In this document: one piece after another, positions 2,293 to 19,050 of the stretch
Layout: every line of letters begins with the position of its first letter
Position numbering within the stretch: position 1 is the first letter of the stretch
Virus genome (UHGV): UHGV-0075699
Length of the DNA stretch: 19,854 bases
DNA from: a virus
Direction: 5' to 3' (one strand)
Translations under genes and position numbers: made by a program
Notes under the pieces: generated by a model
What the model was told of the DNA's origin: nothing
Seen by the model: the letters and a program-made list of their open reading frames with translations, nothing else
The model's database searches: none

Positions 2293-2754
2293 ATGGCAAT
2301 TAATTTACCAGTGTACTTTATGAACAGCAGCGGGGAATTTTCAACTACACCGCAACCAATGGCTGTACCCGTGATAGTTGTCACATTTGCAGCGGTTGAC
2401 AAAGATAATCATTATCAAATACCGAACCCCGAGAAACATGAATCAGCTATGGTTCTGATCGATACTGGTGCTACCGCCTGTTATATCGATAATGATTTTG
2501 CTGATGAATTAGAACTCCCAGTTACCAGCGAAATCCAAGTTCGGGGAGGAACTTCTACAATTAATTCAACAGCTCGCAGGGCGGTTATGAGCCTAACAAA
2601 CGACGGGCGCCTTTTTTCTCAAGAATTTCATGCAACCCCTTTAGTTAATAATGGGCGACACTTCAAAGCAATTCTTGGGATGGAGTTTCTTCAACACTGC
2701 TCATTCACGCTTGACTACAAAAATAACAAATTCGAGTTGTTGTTTAATAGTTAA
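2293..2754 (+). CDS. Retropepsin-like (clan AA) aspartic protease, moron gene
   Basis: Protein contains VLIDTGATACYID (D-T-G-A catalytic motif in hydrophobic context) and a C-terminal AILGMEFL motif resembling the retropepsin I-I-G-R-D-x-L element. AAGGAA RBS 5 nt upstream of ATG. Gene is visibly AT-richer than its flanks and opposite in orientation to the late operon. Confidence 0.65.
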   Translation: MAINLPVYFMNSSGEFSTTPQPMAVPVIVVTFAAVDKDNHYQIPNPEKHESAMVLIDTGATACYIDNDFADELELPVTSEIQVRGGTSTINSTARRAVMSLTNDGRLFSQEFHATPLVNNGRHFKAILGMEFLQHCSFTLDYKNNKFELLFNS

Positions 2755-4364: not shown

Positions 4365-4772
4365 TTACCGGACAATTATTTCCATTTTTTGTCCTAGTAC
4401 CGATAGTGCTTTTTGAATGGTGTCGATCTTGGTGCTATGACCAAGAGACACGATTCGCTGTACCTCCTGAGGGCGCGTATTAATCATGCGGGCCAGTTCA
4501 GCGTTACTGGTATTGGTACTGACCAGGCGGTTTAGCAATAATACCTTCGCCGCCACGCTTGATGGCACTTCAACAAACGCCTCACCCTCTGCTGAAGGTG
4601 CGGGGATCTCCCGGCGGTCGTCAAAATAGAAATCAAACGCCGTAACCAGGGCATCCTGCGCCATTTCTAACGCTTCCTCCCTGGTTGCCCCTCCCGTCAT
4701 TGCCTCGGGGATATCTGGGAAAAATACCGCCCAGCCGGTTTCGTCATGCTCAAAATTTACCGGATATCTCAT
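4365..4772 (-). CDS. hicB: HicB antitoxin
   Basis: From the internal ATG at 4772 the protein reads MRYPVNFEHDETGWAVFFPDIPEAMTGGATREEALEMAQDALVTAFDFYFDD...LSVLGQKMEIIVR, matching the recalled E. coli HicB pattern (MRYPV...FVDIPEA...DAL.TAFDFYFED...). Directly downstream of hicA. Confidence 0.85.
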   Translation of the reverse strand: MRYPVNFEHDETGWAVFFPDIPEAMTGGATREEALEMAQDALVTAFDFYFDDRREIPAPSAEGEAFVEVPSSVAAKVLLLNRLVSTNTSNAELARMINTRPQEVQRIVSLGHSTKIDTIQKALSVLGQKMEIIVR

Positions 4773-4819
4773 ATTGATTAAGTGAATCTCCACGAGTACC
4801 AGCCCCGGAGGGCTGGTTT

Positions 4820-5225: not shown

Positions 5226-5945
5226 TTAATCACATTTTTCCGTTCTGACCTCTTCTATTTGCTCATGATATGTGTAGATGTTCTGCAATGCGTTGTTATC
5301 CATCTCAATGAAAGCCGTTTTAAGTCGTTCCCAATGCCCGGCATAAACCCTTTTCCAGGTTGAGCGGTCAACTGAAACCATACGCGCCAGAGCTGCGCCA
5401 GCGTAGGTTTTATACGTCTCATTATTCCGGGTCGCTGCAACCTCCTGGCCAGCCAGCCAGACCAGCCCCACAAGCTTTTTTATTACTCTCGATTGGATCG
5501 CCCTGCCTACTTGATAGTTCTGATATTCAGTCCAGACGTGTTCACACATCAGCGTCTGGTAACGGAAATTTAGATCGAAGCCATAGCAATAGCGCACCCA
5601 TGCCTGGTGATGTTCTTCCAGCAGGTTTACAGCGCGCCTCCACGGTGAATAACCGAATTCAATATCATTGATGGGCGGCATTGGCCGGCGGCGGCTGCGG
5701 GTCTCCATCACATAAACTGGAGTAGTCAGTGCCTTAACCACCGACGGGCCACAACCAATCCCCCCTTCCAGATCGACAAGATTGCGAGAGCACCGCGGAT
5801 TTTTATTCTTATCTGCCGGTGGGTTCTCGCTGAATGCCTCGAGTTGTCCCTTTGTTGCGCCGGATAAATCCAACAACGCTCGACGCACTTCAATACGGGT
5901 ATATTCCAGGTTTTGTAGGTTCATACTGCTCAACGCTCCATACAC
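5226..5945 (-). CDS. Probable late antiterminator Q (Qin/82-type Phage_antitermQ-like)
   Basis: 239-aa ORF located exactly where Q sits in lambdoid phages (after the nin-region genes, directly before a promoter-terminator pair and the lysis cassette). Assignment rests mainly on position and size; start could be GTG 5945 or ATG 5924. Confidence 0.5.
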   Translation of the reverse strand: MYGALSSMNLQNLEYTRIEVRRALLDLSGATKGQLEAFSENPPADKNKNPRCSRNLVDLEGGIGCGPSVVKALTTPVYVMETRSRRRPMPPINDIEFGYSPWRRAVNLLEEHHQAWVRYCYGFDLNFRYQTLMCEHVWTEYQNYQVGRAIQSRVIKKLVGLVWLAGQEVAATRNNETYKTYAGAALARMVSVDRSTWKRVYAGHWERLKTAFIEMDNNALQNIYTYHEQIEEVRTEKCD

Positions 5946-7006
5946 TATGCTTTTATAATTGCGCCGATCGCCATAGCTCGATCAAGAAAACGGAACAGCA
6001 GCTCCAACTGCGTGCCATTCTTCTCTTCAAAGGCGTTAACATCGGCATGTAGCTCGTCGTGGCACTCTCTGCACAGAGGAAACACGAAGAGATCGTGGGC
6101 TTTGGTTGCGGTACCGCCCATGCCATGGCCGATGACATGATGCGGATCGTCAGCTGGTCTGCGGCAGCATTCGCATGGTTGATGCTTAACCCAGTCGGTA
6201 TAAGTCTTGCTTACCCAGCGACGGCGCTTTGGCCTGAGCATGAAAGATTCCGGCGATTCCGGATCGGCAGTCAGCGCAAGCCCCTTCGGCTGGTCCTGGT
6301 GCGCCTGGACATTTTCGTTGCGCCTGCATTGCCTTGCTGTGCCTGCAGCTGGCAGTTTCTCCTGCAGAATGCTGGTGGCCGGTAAAGTAGGCCGGATATC
6401 GCTTTCTTTATACACCGACAGGAACGGCTCTTCAGGCAACCCTAGACCACGCTGCGCCATCGTCTCCGTAATGGCATCGGCTATACCTGACTGAACTGCC
6501 CACCAGCACAACTCTGCGATTGAAAGAGAGCGTTCTTTGTTATAACCGAGCCCGATCAGCACAGTATCTATTACCCAGTCGACTACATTACGAAGTGCCA
6601 GCGCCTCGATAGCTGGAGTCGACTGCTCCCGCAGTTTATTGTCACAATGCCAGCACACCAGCAACGCACCAGGCGGATGTCGCATCGTTACCATCTCGTT
6701 ATGGTGGTACTCGGAATGAGGGTACTGGCACCTCTTCAGCCGGAGAAACAGCCACCGTTCAAGCGCTGGCAATCCACCAGCAGCACGAATCACACGCTCA
6801 TCGGAAAAGAATACGTGCAGGCTGGAATCCTCCGCTAAAGGTTGTCGGGCATCAGGGACACGACCAGATGGCAAGCGGGCCATATTTTGTGGTTCAGCCT
6901 CGACTAAAACACGCCCGGCAGAAAACAGGTGCATCAGATCACGGCCGGGCTTAAATAGAACCACGCCGAGGCGTGGCACAATCTCAGGGGTGAGTAACGC
7001 TCTCAT
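5945..7006 (-). CDS. Cys/His-rich nin-region protein, DUF968-like with HNH-like metal-binding C-terminus
   Basis: C-terminal region HQPCECCRRPADDPHHVIGHGMGG...FPLCRECHDELH has paired CxxC and His clusters typical of HNH/zinc-binding nucleases; a second Cys cluster (LLVCWHCDNK) lies mid-protein. Start overlaps the MTase stop. Confidence 0.45.
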   Translation of the reverse strand: MRALLTPEIVPRLGVVLFKPGRDLMHLFSAGRVLVEAEPQNMARLPSGRVPDARQPLAEDSSLHVFFSDERVIRAAGGLPALERWLFLRLKRCQYPHSEYHHNEMVTMRHPPGALLVCWHCDNKLREQSTPAIEALALRNVVDWVIDTVLIGLGYNKERSLSIAELCWWAVQSGIADAITETMAQRGLGLPEEPFLSVYKESDIRPTLPATSILQEKLPAAGTARQCRRNENVQAHQDQPKGLALTADPESPESFMLRPKRRRWVSKTYTDWVKHQPCECCRRPADDPHHVIGHGMGGTATKAHDLFVFPLCRECHDELHADVNAFEEKNGTQLELLFRFLDRAMAIGAIIKA

Positions 7007-8853
7007 GCAACCTCACGCCGACCAGAAACACAAATTTCAGGAAGGTTTGCTCTTACAATCGCCTCAGCAAAGGGCGGCGGCACGGCGTTTCCGCACCTGG
7101 CGACTTGTTTCTCTTTCGAGTACCTCTTGCCGCGGTAGTCACGATCAATGATGTACCAGTCAGGGAATCCCTGAGCGCGGTAAAGTTCATGCGGCTGCAG
7201 CATGCGCATTCCGATATCAACAATGCGGTAAACAATACCCTTAATCGTCACCAGTTCGCTGACGCCAAAAGAATTCAGGAACTCTTTGACCTGATCCGCC
7301 CGGCGCTCGTCGTAATCATTAGCCGCCAGCAGCGCGCGAACCTCTCCAACATGCTGACCTCCAGCGGTGATTGTCGGCATTGGTTCACTGGTGCGCTGGC
7401 CATCGCGGCAGGTACCGCGCAGTTTAACCAGATGAGACGTAACCAGCGCATGGTGATCGACTGTGGTAACTGAGTGTGCAGGATCGTCCAGTCCGACGCC
7501 CGGGCCGGTATAGTTCCCGCCGTAGTGTTTCGCCAAAAACGCAGTTGTTACGGCAAATTTATTGCCACCAGCTACAACTGTTCCCAGCGGTTTACGCAGA
7601 TTTAGAACGCGCGGCGACTGCCCTACACGTTCGCCATACCCCATCTGAATAAGTGTGGCCGCGACAAGCTGTGACTTCCCCCCGCCGCCAGCGGTAATTG
7701 TTGCGCTGGGTTCATCCGCCCGGTGGCCGATGCTGGCGCCGAACTGACGCGCGATAACTGGCGCAACCAGGCAGGAGCGAGACTGTTTAAGGATGGTATG
7801 AGCGGGTTTATTCAATGGCCGCGGTTTCGCCTGGTACTCGCTACCCCCATTACCTGCCAGGAATGGAACCAACGTCGGTAACGCCAGCGCATAACCGTGG
7901 GTTTTGGTGATGGTTTGCAGGGGATCGGCCAGCGACTGTCCGCGGAAGCAATCATATTTACCGCGTGTTGTGGTGTGGTTGCATTTGACGATGAACGGAT
8001 TATCACTTTCGACGACAAACCGCTGGATGCCGCGCGCTATCCGTTTCAACGTGTTAATGGCCAGCGGCTTTTTACGGTCAAATATCGATGGTGCAGGAAT
8101 AGACCAGTCGATACACTCAGCAGCTGTCCGCCATGGTGCCAAATTTCCGGATTTAACTGCTGCGGATTTAGGGTCACCGTGAGTGACTCCCGGCCAGGCA
8201 ATGGGTTTATCGTCACAACGCATCAACATGAAGAATCGCTTGCGGATCGTCGGAGCACCATAATCACTGGCACGCAGTTCGCGATATTCGACCTTATACC
8301 CGAGGCCAGCAATCAGTCGTTTGGCTTGTTTGCCATCCGAGGATATGCCGAGAAATTCGCAACATTCGTACAGAGCCGGGTGATCCGCAGGTATACCAGT
8401 GGAAAGCATTCCAACAAATGCCAGGAAGGTTTCACCAGAACGCTTAGGATCAGGACGCATCTCACATGAAAGCAGCGGGCCCCACGTTTTAAATTCTTCA
8501 ACATTTTCGAGAGCCATTACACGAGGGCGAACATCCAATGCCCAGCGAACAGATACCCAAGCCAGGCCACGAATCTCACGTTTTACCGGTTTACTGCCGC
8601 GCGCCTTTGAATAGTGGGTACAATCCGGGCTGAACCATGCAAACCAGACAGCCTTTCCACCTGTCGCAGCGACAGGGTCAACGTCAAAGACGTTTTCACA
8701 ATAATGAAGCGTGTCCGGGTGATTCGTCCGGTGCATGGCCACGGCGTTTTCGTCGTGGTTAATGGCAATATCAACGCTGCGGCCGATCGCCATTTCTATC
8801 CCGGTAGATGCCCCACCACCGCCAGCAAAATTATCAACAATCAGCTCACGCAT
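7003..8853 (-). CDS. DNA (cytosine-5)-methyltransferase with large variable/target-recognition region
   Basis: Motif I DNFAGGGGAS (AdoMet binding), motif IV SPDCTHYS (catalytic Pro-Cys), motif VI ENV, C-terminal CGNAVPPP (motif X). About 400 aa lie between motif VI and the C-terminal motifs. Confidence 0.85.
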   Translation of the reverse strand: MRELIVDNFAGGGGASTGIEMAIGRSVDIAINHDENAVAMHRTNHPDTLHYCENVFDVDPVAATGGKAVWFAWFSPDCTHYSKARGSKPVKREIRGLAWVSVRWALDVRPRVMALENVEEFKTWGPLLSCEMRPDPKRSGETFLAFVGMLSTGIPADHPALYECCEFLGISSDGKQAKRLIAGLGYKVEYRELRASDYGAPTIRKRFFMLMRCDDKPIAWPGVTHGDPKSAAVKSGNLAPWRTAAECIDWSIPAPSIFDRKKPLAINTLKRIARGIQRFVVESDNPFIVKCNHTTTRGKYDCFRGQSLADPLQTITKTHGYALALPTLVPFLAGNGGSEYQAKPRPLNKPAHTILKQSRSCLVAPVIARQFGASIGHRADEPSATITAGGGGKSQLVAATLIQMGYGERVGQSPRVLNLRKPLGTVVAGGNKFAVTTAFLAKHYGGNYTGPGVGLDDPAHSVTTVDHHALVTSHLVKLRGTCRDGQRTSEPMPTITAGGQHVGEVRALLAANDYDERRADQVKEFLNSFGVSELVTIKGIVYRIVDIGMRMLQPHELYRAQGFPDWYIIDRDYRGKRYSKEKQVARCGNAVPPPFAEAIVRANLPEICVSGRREVA

Positions 8854-9742
8854 GGCTCACCCCCTGCATGCTTTCTACCAGTCCACCAGCAACAGTGATG
8901 ATCTCGCTGGTGGGCATACGCTCCAGCCACAGCTGGTTAATTTGCGCCATCAGCTTGTTTTGCTGGGACGGCTCCAGTCCTTCGGATCCTTCTACCTGTC
9001 GAAACACAAGCCCTACCTCCAGTGGCCAAATACGCGATTCCGTCTCTGGTAATTGCGTAGGCGTTGCGAGTGGTTCTACTGCCGCCGGCTGCGACATTAC
9101 CTGTGCTGGAGTATTGCCAACAGCAAACTGCGCCAGCATCATGAACGCTTGCCCTTTCCTTTCCAGATCCGCACGGTGGATATAGCCGAACCGCTCCCCG
9201 CGCCAGGCCTTATCAAACACGGCAATGGCGCCCGCAAAAAACGCGCTGGTGGGCTTTTGCTTATCATCAGCAGGGACAAACCACGCCGGGAGGTCGAATC
9301 CAATACGACCACGAATAAACATGATGTGATCGGCATCTTCTGGCCACCATGTTTCGCTCGGTGCTGCTTTGATGAGAAATACATAGCGCCCGCCCTTCTC
9401 ACGCTGCGCTGACGCGTAATTCATGATGTGCGTCATGCCAGTTATCGCCTGCTTTTCGTGGTACTGGGAGCGGCTATACGGTGGGTTGCCAAAGCCAGCG
9501 CCGCCAAGTTCTTCCAGACGAGCGGACCAATCTTGCGTCAGCGCGTTGTCTTCGGCGGTGAACCATACCGGGCATTTTGCGTTGCTATCGTCAGCAAACA
9601 GGTCCAGTACCAGCGGTCCAAACATTGCGTTAACGCCCCAGAACAGCAGATCAGGCGTGCGCCACTGATCACCAACGTCTTTCAGAAAATGGGACGGTGC
9701 AGCGCGCATGGCCGCCAGCGATTCACAATATGCATTCGTCAC
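8846..9742 (-). CDS. Phage-type DNA N6-adenine methyltransferase
   Basis: Contains GFGNPPYSRSQ (the NPPY motif of N6-adenine / N4-cytosine amino-MTases) with upstream AdoMet-binding-like segment. 8-nt overlap with the downstream C5-MTase gene. Confidence 0.8.
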   Translation of the reverse strand: MTNAYCESLAAMRAAPSHFLKDVGDQWRTPDLLFWGVNAMFGPLVLDLFADDSNAKCPVWFTAEDNALTQDWSARLEELGGAGFGNPPYSRSQYHEKQAITGMTHIMNYASAQREKGGRYVFLIKAAPSETWWPEDADHIMFIRGRIGFDLPAWFVPADDKQKPTSAFFAGAIAVFDKAWRGERFGYIHRADLERKGQAFMMLAQFAVGNTPAQVMSQPAAVEPLATPTQLPETESRIWPLEVGLVFRQVEGSEGLEPSQQNKLMAQINQLWLERMPTSEIITVAGGLVESMQGVSHA

Positions 9743-9996
9743 GCCAGCACCTCCTGCACTACTTTCTCGACATGAGACACTCGGCCTTCCAGATCTGCAA
9801 CACTATCAACCAGCTCATCAACTGCCAGCTGTGCGCGATGTTTGGCCTGCATCAGTTCACGCAACGCCGGTACCAGCGCTTTTTTAAGCGCGTCCTTTGT
9901 GGCCCCCGTCTTTTCCAGTTGTTCGGCACGTTTGAGCATGTCTTCAGCCTGGCGGCGCAGTTGTTCAGGGGTTAGTGATATAACCTGCGATTTCAT
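9739..9996 (-). CDS. Hypothetical small coiled-coil protein (85 aa)
   Basis: ORF whose ATG overlaps the stop of the replication gene (ATGA) and whose stop overlaps the MTase GTG start; predicted helical, charged. Confidence 0.5.
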   Translation of the reverse strand: MKSQVISLTPEQLRRQAEDMLKRAEQLEKTGATKDALKKALVPALRELMQAKHRAQLAVDELVDSVADLEGRVSHVEKVVQEVLA

Positions 9997-10874
9997 GAAC
10001 GGAATCCTTTTGGCACGGTGTAATTGACATCTGAATAGCTGGACTTGAATGCCTGGTCTTCACTTCCGGCTTTAGCCCATTTTCCATCAACACATTTCGG
10101 GCGACCGGCAGCGGCCCACTTGGTTGCAGACTGGAGATATCCAGGGAATTTTGACGGCAGAAAGAGCGTGGTTGGTCGCAGATATTCAGCCATTTTTAGA
10201 TCTTTTCCCCACTTCTCAGCGCTGTAATCGACCACCAGCGCCAGTTCGTCAGGTGTAAATCCTTCGCGCAGCCTCCCCCGGATATGTTCCAGGGAGGTTT
10301 TGCATACCTGAAAACGTGAACCGGTTGTGAGGTTCAGGTGTGAAAGGGCCTGCTTAGCAAGATCGGTAATAACCACTTCCGGGTCGGGTTCCGCAGGAAC
10401 CGGACAAAGGGGTTTAGATCCTACTGATGGATCTGGTTTTGAATTTACTGACGGATCGTGTCCAGTTTCTGGACCCTGAGAACCCTGTTTTTTTGGCTCT
10501 TTCGGACGTTCAGTTTCTGGACGTCCAGATTCCGAAGGTTCAGATTCTGAACGTCCAGATTTTGGACCCTCATAATGTTCATTTGCAGCCTGCCGCAGCT
10601 TAGCCACATTCAAGGTGTAGAGATTGCTGGTGCTGCGCTGACCGAGACGCCGTTCTTTTTTGGTCAGCCAGCCATCTTTAACCAGCTCGCCGATCAAAGT
10701 GATAACGGTACTGCGCCCGGCGCCGAGCTGGCGCGCAATCGTCGCAACGCTTGGGTATGCGATCCCCTCATCACTGGCGTAATCAGCCAGGCGAAGCATG
10801 ATCAGTAATTTATTGCCTTTGATGCCTGCCGCGGCGCAACCATCCCAGACATATGCGGATAATTTAACGCTCAC
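9993..10874 (-). CDS. Replication initiation protein (N-terminal HTH, repeat-containing linker, conserved phage C-terminal domain)
   Basis: N-terminus LLIMLRLADYASDEGIAYPSVATIARQLGAGRSTVITLIGELVKDGWL is a winged-HTH of the phage replisome-organiser type. The central low-complexity repeat linker is encoded by DNA iterons. The C-terminus (LAKQALSHLNLTTGSRFQ...GFTPDELALVVDYSAEKWGKD) resembles the phage conserved C-terminal domain family. Confidence 0.65.
   Translation of the reverse strand: MSVKLSAYVWDGCAAAGIKGNKLLIMLRLADYASDEGIAYPSVATIARQLGAGRSTVITLIGELVKDGWLTKKERRLGQRSTSNLYTLNVAKLRQAANEHYEGPKSGRSESEPSESGRPETERPKEPKKQGSQGPETGHDPSVNSKPDPSVGSKPLCPVPAEPDPEVVITDLAKQALSHLNLTTGSRFQVCKTSLEHIRGRLREGFTPDELALVVDYSAEKWGKDLKMAEYLRPTTLFLPSKFPGYLQSATKWAAAGRPKCVDGKWAKAGSEDQAFKSSYSDVNYTVPKGFRS
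10422..10567. repeat. Iteron array (candidate replication origin) inside the replication gene
   Basis: Four perfect tandem 15-bp units at 10508-10567 (GTTCAGTTTCTGGAC, GTCCAGATTCCGAAG, GTTCAGATTCTGAAC, GTCCAGATTTTGGAC), a fifth copy at 10460-10474 (GTCCAGTTTCTGGAC), and a second repeat pair TACTGATGGATC / TACTGACGGATC at 10422-10433 and 10446-10457. Each unit is internally palindromic. Confidence 0.6.
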
Positions 10875-11050
10875 TTATCAATCCTCTTGAATCGGGCGCG
10901 GAAGATGATCATCGGAGCAGCACACTCCCACTCATATCCCGGGCGGCGGTAAATAACACGCTGGCGGCCAGCGTCGTATCCAGTCACATGCACAACGATG
11001 CCGTGTTGGTCACGATAAAGTAGGTCCATCGGTTGAATATGCTCTTCCAC
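10871..11050 (-). CDS. Hypothetical small protein (59 aa)
   Basis: Manually translated: GTG start at 11050 preceded by GGAGG at 5-nt spacing; stop TGA overlaps the GTG start of the replication gene (GTGA). VEEHIQPMDLLYRDQHGIVVHVTGYDAGRQRVIYRRPGYEWECAAPMIIFRARFKRIDK. Confidence 0.35.
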   Translation of the reverse strand: MEEHIQPMDLLYRDQHGIVVHVTGYDAGRQRVIYRRPGYEWECAAPMIIFRARFKRIDK

Positions 11051-11051
11051 A

Positions 11052-11756
11052 TCAGCCTCCCATCAGTTCAGAGGCATAGCGCTGTGCAATCCACTGGACG
11101 CCGCGGGGGGTTACTCGCGTTTGGGTGTAGGCATGACCAAAATCTGAAGTACCCGTTTTGACGGTAAACAGACCTTCACGCTGGCGCAGGGCATGAGGGA
11201 GCAGATTGCCGGACTGGCGAAACAGCACCTTGTCACGCAGTAGCGTGTCAATCATGGCCTTTTCTGGCATGTTGAGGATCTTCGCCGTCTCACGCAGACT
11301 TTTGGCACCGCCGGACTCTACGTAGTGGTTTACAAACGCTACCTTAGGCGCATCCTGCTGAACCTTATGCGCCAGCTGCGCATTCTGTTCAGCCATATCG
11401 GCAGCGAGTCGCAAGGCTTCAGGTAACGTTTGAGGAATGGCCGATTTGTTCTCAAGCTCCTGCCAGCGATCCACAACCGCCGCGGTAAACTCAGGAGACA
11501 GACGGGCAACCAAAACCAATGAGTCGCGCTTATTGAAGCGGTACTCCTTATACACGTTTCCGTTATGCTCAAAATCGAACTGCGCCAACGGCGCGGTTAA
11601 AAGACCAGCAGCTTTCAGGCGCTCAGCGGAGCGTTTGACATCACCATGTTTACTCTGAACCAGAGCGGCGATTTCCCGACTGCTCATTGTCACTACGCCG
11701 CCGAACACAGGGGAAAATCCAACAGCCGGGGCACGATTAATTGATTGCTGAGTCAT
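11052..11756 (-). CDS. Rha-family phage regulatory protein / antirepressor (KilA-C-like C-terminus)
   Basis: N-terminal segment [27 protein letters not shown]...[23 protein letters not shown] follows the Rha pattern; the C-terminal segment ([27 protein letters not shown]...GLFTVK...[13 protein letters not shown]) resembles antirepressor C-terminal domains. Confidence 0.6.
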
Positions 11757-11934
11757 TCGGTTTCACTCCTCTGGATCTATAGTCACCCACAGCCCACTCG
11801 GTAAAACTGTGGTTCACCTCTTCCCAGCCACCGGGTACTCTTACGGCATAGCAATACGTGACCGCGCCTTTGCCACCACGAACCGGCAATGCGCGGAGTT
11901 GCGAACGCGGGATATTTGCGGTTAAATTGCTCAT
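11737..11934 (-). CDS. Hypothetical small protein (65 aa)
   Basis: ATG at 11934 overlaps the TGA stop of the upstream regulator (ATGA coupling). [40 protein letters not shown]...; no motif recognised. Confidence 0.4.
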
Positions 11935-12488
11935 GCGGATTTCTCCATACACATTGATTTATTCGCCACGACGCCCGGAGCTGCACACTCGCGGGCGTCA
12001 CTCTTTTCTGGCTGGCAGAAAATGCGATAAACAAGAATCGAATGCTCCTGAAGTTTTTGAATAGAGCTATACAGCTCTCCATCGATCGCCGCGCGTTCAT
12101 GCGGCTCAATCACACCATCTTCGATCGCTACCCGAATCTGTTGCGAATAGGCTGTAATCTGTTCGATAACCTCAAGCAGTCCCTGATTGATATCTGCGTT
12201 ATCCACTTCTTCAATATCCGCTAGCGGAACAAAGACCCCGCCGGACTGGCGCGCGACCGCATCGGTGATGTGACTTGCGCCACCAGCACGCTGCAGCACC
12301 ATCGCCCACTCAAGCGGGAAGATCTGATCACCAGCGACGCGCAGGCGGTTGAATAAGGCGTTTTCAGTTATACCCAGCCATTCAGCCGCCTCGGCATAAC
12401 CTCCAGGCAGTTCAGTAATCGTTTTCTTGATCGCGGCCACCAACCAGGCTGGTTGACGCTCTACTTTCCAAATTGGCTCATTACCCAC
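11931..12488 (-). CDS. CII-like phage regulatory protein (Phage_CP76 / 186-CII-like family)
   Basis: Segment [55 protein letters not shown]...[18 protein letters not shown] fits the remembered conservation pattern of this family; position directly after cro; GTG start with AGGGGGGG RBS. Confidence 0.55.
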
Positions 12489-12532
12489 GGTTCCCCCCCT
12501 TTTTCTGTGGTTCTTGCTGTTGCAAGTACCTG

Positions 12533-12733
12533 TTATGTTTTGGAATAGATATCTGGCCTAAGCTGCGATCTGGTGATGGCACCGGAGGTGCTTTTCTCCA
12601 ACTTTTTTGCTAGGTCAAAACCAGCTTTCTTGTAGCCATTGAAAACCAAACGTAGGTAACCGGTAGTGGAGCCAACGTTTGTTGCTAATTTGCTCTGTTG
12701 TTCTTTGGTTAATGAATCCCAAAACTCTTTCAT
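12533..12733 (-). CDS. Cro-like repressor (YdaS-type HTH)
   Basis: 66-aa protein from the ATG at 12733 (MKEFWDSLTKEQQSKLATNVGSTTGYLRLVFNGYKKAGFDLAKKLEKSTSGAITRSQLRPDIY), strong AGGAGG SD 7 nt upstream; divergent from the CI repressor gene across an operator-rich intergenic region. Confidence 0.7.
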   Translation of the reverse strand: MKEFWDSLTKEQQSKLATNVGSTTGYLRLVFNGYKKAGFDLAKKLEKSTSGAITRSQLRPDIYSKT

Positions 12734-12820
12734 ATATGTACCTCCTGTGTACATATTACACGAAAGAAATGAACCTTCAAGGTACTTGTACCTTTACGGT
12801 ACACGCGGTTTAATTTCCCT
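12734..12820. promoter_or_regulatory. OR-like divergent promoter/operator region between cro and cI
   Basis: Palindromes ATATGTAC-N7-GTACATAT (12734-12756) and AAGGTAC-TT-GTACCTT (12779-12794). Candidate pR on minus (-35 TTGAAG 12775-12780, -10 TAATAT 12753-12758) and candidate pRM on plus (-35 TTGTAC 12786-12791, -10 TTTAAT 12809-12814) that would start at or next to the cI ATG (leaderless). Confidence 0.55.
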
Positions 12821-13495
12821 ATGAAAACAATCCAGGAAATCAGGCGTTTAAACGCCAGAAAGTTGAGAGATGGTGTTGGTGGAAATACTTTTTTTGCCAA
12901 TATGATTGATCGCGAGCCTACTCAAACAAGCCGGTTCATGGGGGACGGCGCGACAAAAAACATCGGCGATGCTATGGCAAGGCACATTGAAAAATGTTTC
13001 GACTTGCCAACTGGGTGGTTAGATCAAGAACACCAAACCACAAACGTGGCAAAGGCCCCTGATGTCTCCGATACAAATAGAAATATCACGATGGTTCCGG
13101 TTATATCCTGGGTACAGGCAGGAGCATGGACCGAAGTTGGTTATGCTGAGGTAGATTTGAATAGTACGGAAAACTATCCCTGTCCTGTCCCTTGTGGCCC
13201 GATGACATACATCCTTCGAGTAATTGGCGACTCCATGATCGATGAGTATCGCCCTGGTGATATGATTTTTGTTGACCCTGAGGTCCCCGCAGTCCATGGC
13301 GATGATGTTATCGCTTTGATGCACGACTCTGGAGAAACAACATTTAAGCGCCTGATTGAAGATGCCGGTAACCGTTATTTAAAAGCTCTTAATTCGAACT
13401 GGCCTGAACCCTATATAAAAATCAACGGTAATTGCTCAATCATTGGAACCGTGATTTTTTCAGGAAAACCAAGAAGATATAGAATAAAAAATTAA
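12821..13495 (+). CDS. CI-type prophage repressor (N-terminal HTH, C-terminal LexA-like S24 peptidase domain)
   Basis: C-terminal domain has the Ser-Lys dyad context (VIGDSM ... TFKRL) of S24 autocleaving repressors; N-terminal region is a small DNA-binding domain; divergent from cro; followed by a strong terminator. Confidence 0.85.
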   Translation: MKTIQEIRRLNARKLRDGVGGNTFFANMIDREPTQTSRFMGDGATKNIGDAMARHIEKCFDLPTGWLDQEHQTTNVAKAPDVSDTNRNITMVPVISWVQAGAWTEVGYAEVDLNSTENYPCPVPCGPMTYILRVIGDSMIDEYRPGDMIFVDPEVPAVHGDDVIALMHDSGETTFKRLIEDAGNRYLKALNSNWPEPYIKINGNCSIIGTVIFSGKPRRYRIKN

Positions 13496-13570: not shown

Positions 13571-14005
13571 AAGAAACAACATGAAAGCGCATTCCATCTT
13601 CATCCGTCGTGGGGACTGGTTTGTTACTGAAGGAGTGCGCTTCCAGTTGTGGTAATTGCGGCTATGCGCACGTGACGAGCCAAACCCGTTCAATGAATGC
13701 GTTTCCGGGTAGTGTACGTCGCCGGTTATGGCTTAACCCGGCAGGTGGAGGCAAGGGCTTTACCCGGGCGGGTGGAGCCCCCCCCGCCACAACTCGAATT
13801 GCTGTGTGTAGTCTTTGCCCAGTCTCCCCGATGGGCCCTTTTTTTACACAACAGGAAAGAGCACCGCCGGCGCCGGGAACTAACCCAGTCCGGATCCGGG
13901 TTCAAAGTGTGGACCCTCTCTCCTTCAGGCTCTGAACTGGTGCTCTCCCCTGTTGTGTATGGAGAAACTAATGGCGGTGGCAGCCGCCTTTCGAGAGGGT
14001 AAACC

Positions 14006-17659: not shown

Positions 17660-17869
17660 ATGGCAAAACTAATGAAGGCGAGTCAATGGGGCAAACGCGA
17701 ATTTGCCAAAGACTCTATTCCGGATAACCGAACCATTAAACGTTGGGTTGAAAATGGGCTACTCACAGGGAAGATCGTCGACGGTTCTGTTTTCGTCTTC
17801 GAGTCTGAAAAATGGGGAGTCGACTCAATGGTTAATCATACGGTTCGACAGCTAATAAATGAAGGTTGA
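17660..17869 (+). CDS. xis: Excisionase (Xis-like DNA-binding protein)
   Basis: 69-aa protein immediately upstream of and overlapping int; segment NRTIKRWVENGLLTGKIVDGSVFVFES resembles lambda Xis (ETVRRWVRECRIFPPPVKDGREYLFHES). Confidence 0.65.
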   Translation: MAKLMKASQWGKREFAKDSIPDNRTIKRWVENGLLTGKIVDGSVFVFESEKWGVDSMVNHTVRQLINEG

Positions 17870-17871
17870 CC

Positions 17872-19050
17872 ATGGCAGCCAGACCAAGAAAAAGAGAATA
17901 TCGCCACCTTCCAGAATATCTTTTATTTGATAAAGATCGCGGTGTTTATAAATTTACTCTTATAACAGGAAAGAAAAAGAACCTTGGTAAAGATCGAGCT
18001 ATGGCGATTGCTGTAGCTCGCGAATACAACCTAAGAATGAGACCATTAAACGTACCATCTGTTGATGTATTAATTAGGGAATCAGGTGGTATCGCTGGTG
18101 AGGCCAAACCATTTGCTGAATATGTAGACCATATTATGAACCGAGCAATTGAGAATGAGCGGCCATCACAAAATACCCTCGACGATTGGAATAATGATGC
18201 CATTCGTGTGAAAGAATTTTTTATCAATATTCCCGCTTGCGATATTGAACTGGAGCATGTAAACGCCTACATAAACCATTATCATGCTGAAGCTTCAGCA
18301 AACGTACAGAATAGGAAAGTCAGCTTCCTTAAAAAACTTTTCTCCTATGCGGTCGATGAATCATTAATGTTTGATAACCCGGCCACACGTAAAAAGATGC
18401 GCAGGACTGAGGAGAAGAAACGGCAGCGCCTGTCACTCGAACACTTTAAAGCCATCAGACGCGCCGCCGAGCCATGGCTACGGACTGCGATGGATTTAGC
18501 ATTGCAGACGACGCATGCGCGCCTTGAGGTGTCACGAATCCGATATTCAATCAGTGAGCCAAAAGATGGCGTCTGCGGGTGTGTATGGCTTGCACAGCCG
18601 GAAAACGGGATTTATGGCACGCTGTACATTCACCGCCAGAAAGTACAGAAGAAAGAGGCCTCGCATGTCGCAATCCCGATCGGGGAAGAGTTGAAGCGGA
18701 TTATTGACGAAAGCCGCGATAATGTAGCCAGCCCGTTTATCGTTCACCGGATTCCAGATAGGCAGGTTAAGCGTAGTAAAGAAGTTTCACACCCAACACA
18801 GGTTGCGCCGGACTATCTGAGCCGGTCCTTTTCAGCGGTGCGCGACAAACTTGGCTTATGCGACAAACTGGCGATGGACGAAAGACCAACCTTTCACGAA
18901 ATTCGAGCGCTGGCCGCCCATCTTTTTGATCAGCAAGGTATCGATCCGCAAGGACGAATGGCGCACAGTGATGCGAAGTCGACCAAGATTTACACGCAAA
19001 ACCATATCGATTGGGTTGTCGTTCCACATGGTGAAATTAAAGCCGGATAA
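17872..19050 (+). CDS. int: Tyrosine integrase (lambda Int family)
   Basis: C-terminal catalytic region contains PTFHEIRALAAHLF (H-x-x-R box, compare lambda PTFHELRSLSARLY) and the tyrosine-containing STKIYTQNH; arm-binding-type basic N-terminus. Start placed at ATG 17872 (GAAGG RBS); ORF track begins at TTG 17866. Lies next to the tRNA-derived att core. Confidence 0.9.
   Translation: MAARPRKREYRHLPEYLLFDKDRGVYKFTLITGKKKNLGKDRAMAIAVAREYNLRMRPLNVPSVDVLIRESGGIAGEAKPFAEYVDHIMNRAIENERPSQNTLDDWNNDAIRVKEFFINIPACDIELEHVNAYINHYHAEASANVQNRKVSFLKKLFSYAVDESLMFDNPATRKKMRRTEEKKRQRLSLEHFKAIRRAAEPWLRTAMDLALQTTHARLEVSRIRYSISEPKDGVCGCVWLAQPENGIYGTLYIHRQKVQKKEASHVAIPIGEELKRIIDESRDNVASPFIVHRIPDRQVKRSKEVSHPTQVAPDYLSRSFSAVRDKLGLCDKLAMDERPTFHEIRALAAHLFDQQGIDPQGRMAHSDAKSTKIYTQNHIDWVVVPHGEIKAG

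Follow-up and report, generated by a model that had tools for sequence, protein, structure and literature searches.

A probable replication origin in the linker-coding part of an HTH_36-type initiator gene of a lambdoid prophage

The replication origin of phage lambda consists of four 18-bp dyad-symmetric iterons and a 39-bp high-AT region in the middle of gene O, the product of which binds DNA with its N-terminal part and P with its C-terminal part, with a flexible linker between the two (PMC6022878, PMC7466680). The iterons inside the initiator gene differ between lambda, P22 and L (Casjens and colleagues, PMC8022706). An origin inside the initiator gene is a principle known from lambda and P22, and specialists expect each lambdoid initiator to have its own iterons. 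What is new here is such an arrangement in an unrelated and poorly annotated initiator family; the general picture from lambda and P22 is unchanged by it. The DNA analysed (the window) is the whole 19,854-nucleotide stretch of UHGV virus genome UHGV-0075699, which is a lambdoid prophage. Judging from the comparison of related sequences, positions ~10383-10567, written in the linker-coding part of the initiator gene, are most probably the replication origin of the prophage, to which the N-terminal domain of the initiator would bind. An origin-like iteron array in this gene had been proposed in a first-pass annotation, and the testable predictions of the lambda-type model at the sequence level were positive, with a less clear outcome for the melting region.

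The initiator is encoded on the minus strand, with two domains on either side of the linker.

9993-10874, minus strand: replication initiator gene (293 amino acids, GTG start, stop codon included; from the list of open reading frames (ORFs))
10569-10874, minus strand: predicted N-terminal winged-helix DNA-binding domain (N-domain; amino acids 1-102, predicted recognition helix at amino acids 54-66)
10131-10346, minus strand: C-terminal Phg_2220_C domain (amino acids 177-248 by Pfam; amino acids 165-255 are helical in the AlphaFold2 model)

In Pfam, the protein matched HTH_36 at amino acids 17-70 (4.1e-12, 46.1 bits, gathering cut-off 25), followed by Phg_2220_C at amino acids 177-248 (4.2e-21, 75.2 bits, gathering cut-off 27), and its relatives carry the identical pair of HTH_36 and Phg_2220_C (TIGR02220). 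The PHROGs labels were 'primosomal protein' and 'replication initiation protein / O-like', with weak matches to 'DnaD-like helicase loader' and a weak Pfam match to DnaD_N. These matches identify the gene as the predicted replication initiator. Most of the 1372 homologous protein clusters (90% identity) are named 'conserved phage C-terminal domain-containing protein', and public annotation of the family mostly uses this name or 'GntR family regulator'; the closest cluster is from Klebsiella pneumoniae (94%).

An AlphaFold2 model of the initiator was made from 38 sequences. In this model, the N-domain contains helices 5-16, 20-31, 43-50 and 54-66, a beta wing (70-73/85-88) and helix 90-102, with block-mean pLDDT confidence values of 65-92. 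The linker between the winged-helix and Phg_2220_C domains (amino acids 103-157) is rich in Ser, Glu, Pro and Lys and disordered (pLDDT <50). A Foldseek search with the N-domain returned generic MarR/ArsR-type winged helices alone (best E 0.012), and no solved structure matched the initiator by sequence below E 0.067. Winged helices of the MarR/ArsR type bind dyad-symmetric DNA as dimers. The N-domain would be the iteron binder, and the Phg_2220_C domain may be the part of the initiator which recruits the replisome.

No homology of the initiator to lambda O was detectable (BLASTP E 0.8, hhalign probability 0.5%). It is an HTH_36 protein without a match to Phage_rep_O (PF04492), whereas lambda O matches PF04492 at 5.7e-36, and on these three results the initiator was placed outside the lambda O family. 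No homology to P22 gp18 was found either (BLASTP E 2.1).

Relatives were collected in two scans, the first of genomes and the second of viral contigs, giving 93 loci with 37-97% protein identity, and 21 representatives with <93% nucleotide identity to each other in the N-domain were compared. The origin elements are listed below in gene direction, with iteron positions counted from the invariant anchor GATCCGTCAGTA; all lie within the initiator gene.

10553-10567: iteron 1, the first in gene direction; the plus strand reads GTCCAGATTTTGGAC; dyad 5/6; position -108, in register in 21/21 representatives
10538-10552: iteron 2, GTTCAGATTCTGAAC; perfect 15-bp palindrome about the central base, GTTCAG-ATT-CTGAAC; position -93
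10523-10537: iteron 3, GTCCAGATTCCGAAG, GTCCAG-ATT-CCGAAG; dyad 3/6, the most degenerate of the units; position -78
10508-10522: iteron 4, GTTCAGTTTCTGGAC; dyad 5/6; position -63
10475-10507: spacer of 33 bp with an A7 run in gene sense, GAGCCAAAAAAACAGGG; synonymous identity 0.86
10460-10474: lone iteron 5, GTCCAGTTTCTGGAC; perfect palindrome GTCCAG-TTT-CTGGAC; position -15 in 21/21 representatives; family consensus CCAGAATCTGG
10416-10457: conserved GATC-bearing block of low stability, following the lone iteron; gene sense GATCCGTCAGTAAATTCAAAACCAGATCCATCAGTAGGATCT; nearly invariant, the family form begins GATCCGTCAGTAAATTCAA
10383-10405: G+C-rich inverted repeat (I8); gene sense GTCgGGTTCC-tgc-GGAACCcGAC

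A 15-bp period was detected at 10504-10567 by Tandem Repeats Finder (4.3 copies, 77% matches), and a repeat search of the window placed the array units at 10508, 10523, 10538 and 10553, head-to-tail and exactly 15 bp apart, with the fifth unit starting 48 bp before the array and leaving a gap of 33 bp. The first-pass annotation had described four perfect head-to-tail units, each internally palindromic, with a fifth copy apart from the array. The head-to-tail order, the coordinates, the register and the separate fifth copy all held, but the units are not perfect copies, as they are 65-83% identical to the reference copy, and the internal palindrome is complete in two units, 5/6 in another two and just 3/6 in 10523-10537. 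The repeats code for amino acids 104-125 and 134-152 of the minus-strand ORF 9993-10874, the five units at 10460-10567 covering amino acids 104-138, and the peptide SGRSE SEPSE SGRPE TERPK and its coordinates match the linker that had been predicted. The likeness to the lambda origin inside gene O was also borne out, with the repeats in the linker of the initiator as they are in lambda O.

When GTYCAGWTTCTGRAC was searched for with up to 3 mismatches, 16 strand-matches were found against 2.15 +/- 1.43 expected, a number reached in 0/200 shuffles, and ten of the 16 are the five units, each read on both strands. Across the 21 loci, the density of iteron-like sites is 32.6 per kb in the linker and 0.19 per kb elsewhere, an approximately 170-fold difference. 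A second cluster of such sites was seen neither in the 19.9-kb window nor in the flanking DNA of the 21 loci.

Two isolated observations were made outside the linker. A single iteron-like site, CCAAAATCTGA (1 mismatch), lies at 11137-11147, near the 3' end of the Rha/antirepressor gene and 273 bp upstream of the initiator start, and a similar site is found at equal offset in four of the 21 representative loci. Two adjacent weak palindromes in the early-left region (13900-13937), GTTCAAAGTGTGGAC and CTTCAGGCTCTGAAC, have 3 mismatches to the iteron pattern and are likely due to chance.

The geometry of the array is conserved throughout the family. Tandem units at -108, -93, -78 and -63 and the lone unit at -15 were present in 21/21 representatives, some of which have further units at -48 or more upstream, and the lone iteron is always 48 bp past iteron 4 and 2 bp from the conserved block. 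A comparison between relatives had been suggested as a check on the origin proposal, and the repeats proved to be present and in register in every representative, so that the refuting condition named with the proposal failed. All copies in all genomes share the core YCARAWTCTGR in a strict 15-bp register; the number of tandem units in the 93 loci ranges from 2 to 7, usually 4-5, and changes in steps of 15 bp (5 amino acids) only, for example in L024, which has one unit less. Two classes can be told apart by the iteron flanks. In class A, which includes the window, the dyad is extended to GT-core-AC and there are mostly four tandem units, while class B has CR-TCAAAATCTGA-CR with four to seven units, including at least one extra iteron in the spacer region (units at -48).

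The genome scan gave relatives in records titled Klebsiella, Scandinavium, Ewingella, Rahnella, Pantoea and Erwinia and, oddly, in one assembly labelled Chryseobacterium. No close DNA relative was found in complete E. coli genomes, and the phage collection contained one, Klebsiella phage KpnBHU6 (86.5%). The locus labelled Chryseobacterium sp. (L003, CACSKA010000005.1) has a 65%-identical initiator with enterobacterial-type iterons and a layout near-identical to that of a Scandinavium locus (L004), and a tblastn match in 'Elizabethkingia phage EKP1' is equally odd; both labels may reflect mislabelling or contamination.

The conservation of the repeats goes beyond what the protein requires. Synonymous identity was taken as the presence of the identical codon among representative pairs sharing the amino acid. 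This codon identity was 45% in the N-domain and 47% in the C-domain, compared with 84% in the iterons, 86% in the spacer and 91% in the lone iteron plus GATC block; over amino acids 103-164 it was 0.865 vs 0.451 in the rest of the gene, and 0/10000 random sets of 62 codons reached 0.865. Only TCA and TCT are used for serine in the units, at positions that do not vary, and this in genomes where the synonymous sites of the folded domains are saturated. With the protein fixed and the codons resampled, the window had 28/35 dyad pairs against 17.1 +/- 2.4, which was not reached in 5000 resamplings, and in any of the 21 representatives ≤2/5000 synonymous resamplings matched the observed dyad value. 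As synonymous recodings fail to reach the window value, a linker repeat maintained for the protein only does not explain the dyad symmetry. The amino acids even differ by class (SESGR vs SDASK), with the DNA core kept. These codon patterns indicate that selection acts on the DNA over and above the protein.

The conserved block next to the lone iteron contains two direct GATCCRTCAGTA repeats, 24 bp apart, and three GATC sites within 41 bp. A second repeat pair reported in the first-pass annotation, TACTGATGGATC at 10422-10433 and TACTGACGGATC at 10446-10457, was recovered as part of a 23-nt direct repeat, 78% alike (D3); the anatomy of lone iteron, GATC block and G+C palindrome had not been part of that account. 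The block codons GAT CCG .. GTA .. TCA are identical in 21/21 representatives (synonymous identity 0.91-0.95), and in 12 of the 21 relatives the block is the least stable 25-mer of the gene. As a control, the stability profile recovered the high-AT region of lambda and the annotated rep_origin of P22. It is reasonable to consider the GATC block as an unwinding element, though a weaker one than in lambda, and it is a candidate for the site of first unwinding and/or a host-factor site. GATC is not significantly enriched across the window (89 vs 79.8 expected), and 2/21 relatives lack the second GATC of the block, which weakens a strict GATC-pair model. A terminator-like hairpin on the plus strand (10414-10436) is made of two of the GATC sites and occurs in close relatives only. 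Sites for integration host factor and DnaA I-sites were also considered in the block, but these were poor matches by eye.

The G+C-rich inverted repeat follows the block. In 18 relatives, 95.7% of cells were paired and four of the nine pairs had changed on both sides, which 0/500 shuffles reached, and controls in which the position was slid gave 24-39%. The stem variants are GGTTCC/GGAACC, GGTTGC/GCAACC, GGCTGC/GCAGCC, GGTTTC/GAAACC and GCCTGC/GCAGGC. The correlated amino-acid swaps from P-A-E to A-A-Q are forced by these paired changes, and the alignment indicates that the inverted repeat is maintained by compensatory changes.

A link between the N-domain and the repeats is also found in the protein. 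Among the five alignment columns that split the two iteron classes are residues 54 and 58, which sit at the start of predicted helix 54-66. Class A iterons occur with R54/I58 in 58/58 unique sequences, and class B iterons with R58 and a residue other than Arg at 54 in 29/30 unique sequences; SfII, YeP2, Klebsiella phage 1 LV-2017 and E. coli phage Phi06_2987 S obey the class B rule. The switch of residues 54 and 58 together with the iteron flanks is suggestive of a specificity link between N-domain and iteron.

The N-domain, iterons and GATC block were also found fused to a C-terminus of the lambda O type, in SfII gp41, Klebsiella phage 1 LV-2017, L013 and L014. The C-terminal half of these hybrids resembles lambda O in WG..DL.CAEW...NVLSP.KLR.KWDEL (L096, which is SfII 30642-31583, L098, L013 and L014), and in SfII and Klebsiella phage 1 LV-2017 no lambda-P-like gene is annotated beside the initiator. 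In gp24 of Aeromonas phage 56 (30% identity), the linker still carries GCAGATTCTGC repeats and a GATCC pair. Such a module swap would be the behaviour expected of an origin-specificity module.

The locus can be compared with the described origins feature by feature. With identical tools, lambda showed four iterons of 75-85% identity, then the AT-rich region and then an inverted repeat, and the annotated rep_origin of P22 had the same order; these controls cover repeat anatomy and duplex stability, as the lambda O control for the synonymous test was uninformative (80 loci, all 99-100% identical). As in lambda and the Shiga toxin (Stx) phages, the putative origin is in the linker in the middle of the initiator gene, with imperfect tandem dyad iterons (four in lambda, six in Stx phages), a region that is here a candidate for melting and an inverted repeat, the iteron number varies between relatives and the gene follows cro and cII in the early-right operon. 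Unlike in lambda, the iterons are 15 bp long and abutting, whereas the 18-bp iterons of lambda start 20-24 bp apart; there is a lone fifth site beside the melting block, the block is near-invariant, GATC-bearing and much less A+T-rich, and no P-like loader gene follows the initiator.

The likeness to P22 gene 18 and phage L gene 18 is that of lambdoid initiators carrying their own iterons in the coding region, and the order of the parts is shared with P22, where the repeats come first, then an A+T-rich stretch and then a G+C palindrome (CCCCCT-AAA-GGGGG). However, gp18 has an N-terminus of the lambda O type, P22 has a DnaB-type helicase gene of its own, gene 12, next in line, and the repeats of P22 (CGGTAAAAC type) and L (TGTCCAACGGA) are unrelated to YCARAWTCTGR. 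With the replisome-organizer and DnaD-like initiators of Gram-positive phages, the likeness is in the C-domain only; tblastn gave matches in Streptococcus, Bacillus, Oenococcus and Lactobacillus phages, annotated as replication initiation protein or replisome organizer.

In the plasmid origins of pSC101, R6K, RK2 and P1, a winged-helix Rep protein encoded by the element binds repeated sites beside a melting region and recruits host DnaB, and the melting regions of P1 oriR and oriC contain clustered GATC sites. The iterons of plasmids are as a rule direct repeats of 17-22 bp in non-coding DNA, to which monomers bind and which DnaA boxes usually accompany, unlike the coding, dyad-symmetric iterons of the window, where DnaA boxes (TTWTNCACA, up to 1 mismatch) were not enriched (33 found vs 32.3 expected). 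A DnaA-box-like site close to the array, at 10600-10608, was absent from SfII, the sole relative checked by eye.

HTH_36 proteins are listed in a 2021 preprint on the replication units of Stx phages, according to which the proteins that replicate those phages have not been studied. No published description of an origin, and no binding or replication assay, was found in the literature for the HTH_36 + Phg_2220_C family, and text searches for the iteron and block sequences returned unrelated primer sequences only.

Taken together with the lambda model, initiation could proceed as follows. Dimers of the winged-helix N-domain would bind the four abutting 15-bp dyad iterons and the lone fifth iteron, and the resulting nucleoprotein complex would put stress on the adjacent low-stability GATC block, which would open first, with the G+C inverted repeat marking the far edge. 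The Phg_2220_C domain would then bring in the host helicase machinery.

Several points weigh against the origin reading. The support for it is wholly comparative, and binding, unwinding at the block, helicase recruitment and origin activity are each deduced from it. The block in the window is 40% G+C and the third least stable 25-mer of the gene, with a z of 1.64 compared with 2.9 in lambda and 2.7 in P22. As the iterons are spaced by 15 bp, approximately 1.4 helical turns, instead of the 20-24 bp of lambda, a wrapping similar to the O-some cannot simply be assumed. DnaA boxes, promoter-like sites and a phage gene for a helicase loader were all looked for without success, which makes the loading step a guess. 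The association between residues 54/58 and the iteron flanks may count as approximately one event, because the two classes could come from a single evolutionary split. In the dyad test, units were located by their similarity to the palindromic core, which introduces some bias, limited by the fixed 15-bp register, and the synonymous constraint could partly have another cause, as an antisense frame is open across the iterons in most relatives.

A further-reaching possibility, which we consider doubtful, is a lambdoid replicon with one protein. In such a replicon, the initiator would load the host helicase without a phage P protein or helicase, and Dam methylation or SeqA, acting on the invariant GATC beside the last iteron, would control when the origin fires, with tuning by the downstream Dam gene. 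The origin would also dictate the amino acids of the linker, including the Pro/Glu to Ala/Gln swaps forced by the inverted repeat. The methylation link is only a lead because of the loss of the second GATC in the two relatives mentioned above.

The alternative that survives best, though it is unlikely, is that the initiator binds these sites for autoregulation or copy control, as a roadblock to early-right transcription, by titration or by handcuffing, with the true origin elsewhere in the prophage. Plasmid iterons double as origin elements and copy-control sites, the block proposed for unwinding has only a weak A+T bias in the window, and the iteron-like site upstream of the gene recurs in some of the representative loci, all of which could fit such a role. 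However, copy control would not account for the order of iterons, conserved low-stability block and G+C inverted repeat at fixed distance, which is that of the proven origin of lambda and the annotated origin of P22, or for the N-domain and repeats travelling as one module, and the window and flanks offer no other iteron cluster as the true origin.

It is very unlikely that the synonymous sites are frozen by an overlapping antisense gene, for which the ORF list has a plus-strand candidate at 10427-10603 (58 amino acids, MDLVLNLLTDRVQFLD...). In 20 of the 21 representatives no stop interrupts this frame over the iterons and first GATC repeat, and the open stretch of 55-146 codons often includes an ATG. 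Against this, when a palindromic repeat is open on one strand, a frame of the opposite strand must be open too; in L045 the frame shrinks to 23 codons beside intact iterons, and its ends shift by hundreds of bases among relatives. Neither the dyad symmetry nor the 15-bp register and its fixed lone unit would follow from an antisense gene, and the same holds for the inverted repeat with its compensatory changes, located upstream of the ATG of this frame. Translation would yield a VQ(I/F)L(D/N) repeat of low complexity, and no promoter-like site was found for it. The ORF at 10427-10603 is probably a by-product of the palindromic repeats.

Just as improbable is a role of the palindromes in the messenger RNA (mRNA), as hairpins for ribosome pausing, mRNA stability or control of initiator translation. 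The sense strand does fold better than shuffled sequences (-33.7 kcal/mol, z -3.2, 0/200; single-stranded DNA parameters), and compensatory changes such as those of the G+C inverted repeat are the classic signature of a selected stem; the G+C stem alone could act as an RNA or DNA hairpin. For the array, however, it is the iteron sequence itself that is conserved, in the YCARAWTCTGR core and beyond pairing, and the recognition-helix residues switch with its flanks. The near-invariant GATC block is outside any conserved stem, and no Rfam family reached its gathering score anywhere in the window.

The idea that the segment is merely a low-complexity linker grown by replication slippage, with the DNA repeat as a functionless by-product, hardly deserves credence: it would agree with a disordered Ser/Glu/Pro/Lys-rich linker and with unit numbers varying in whole steps of 5 amino acids, but not with the synonymous identity of the segment, the fixed TCA/TCT serine codons beside saturated folded domains, a dyad symmetry beyond synonymous recoding or a DNA core kept between SESGR and SDASK, and diverged spacers and flanks argue against recent recombinants sharing the segment by descent.

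If the segment is the origin, as we consider most probable, a located cis-acting origin and its likely recognition residues would make a concrete, clonable replicon, and replication specificity or incompatibility classes could be predicted from sequence as class A versus class B. The initiator family is common in prophages of Enterobacterales, and HTH_36 proteins of this type define several non-lambdoid replication units of Stx phages. It would also be a clear case of a protein linker whose sequence is set by DNA sites within its own coding region.

The remaining features of the prophage that are referred to here are the following.

17866-19050: integrase
12821-13495, plus strand: S24-peptidase repressor
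9739-9996: gene for an 85-amino-acid coiled-coil-like protein, directly downstream of the initiator
8846-9742, minus strand: phage Dam methylase (PF05869, 298 amino acids)
7003-8853, minus strand: C5 cytosine methylase (616 amino acids, unusually long; Pfam match in two stretches)

After the repressor, the order on the minus strand is cro-like, CII-like, Rha/KilAC antirepressor, DUF4222 and initiator, which is the early-right operon. Past the initiator come the 85-amino-acid gene, the Dam methylase, the 616-amino-acid C5 methylase, DUF968/HNH, antiterminator Q, lysis genes and Nu1. The initiator start overlaps the stop of the upstream DUF4222 gene (10871-10874) and its stop overlaps the start of the downstream 85-amino-acid gene (at 9996); these overlaps, at 9993-11050 and 9739-9996, give the appearance of translational coupling along the operon. 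No promoter-like sites were found in 9600-13000.

Pfam scans found no helicase, primase or loader gene between the repressor cI and Q, and no helicase or loader among the other window ORFs of at least 90 amino acids. Across 99 loci, lambda P matched in two, one of which is presumably lambda's own. A DUF4222 gene was upstream of the initiator in 88/99 loci, and a Dam gene of the PF05869 type directly downstream in 64-68/99, as well as in SfII, YeP2 and Klebsiella phage 1.

Three further genes were observed in the late part of the window. A DUF968/HNH-like gene (5945-7006, minus strand) lies just upstream of Q, and a HicB-like antitoxin gene (4365-4793, minus strand) lies between Q and the holin. 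Between the lysis and packaging genes, on the opposite strand, there is an ORF with retroviral-type aspartyl protease domains (2293-2754, plus strand; gag-asp_proteas, Asp_protease_2), which looks like a moron-type insert.

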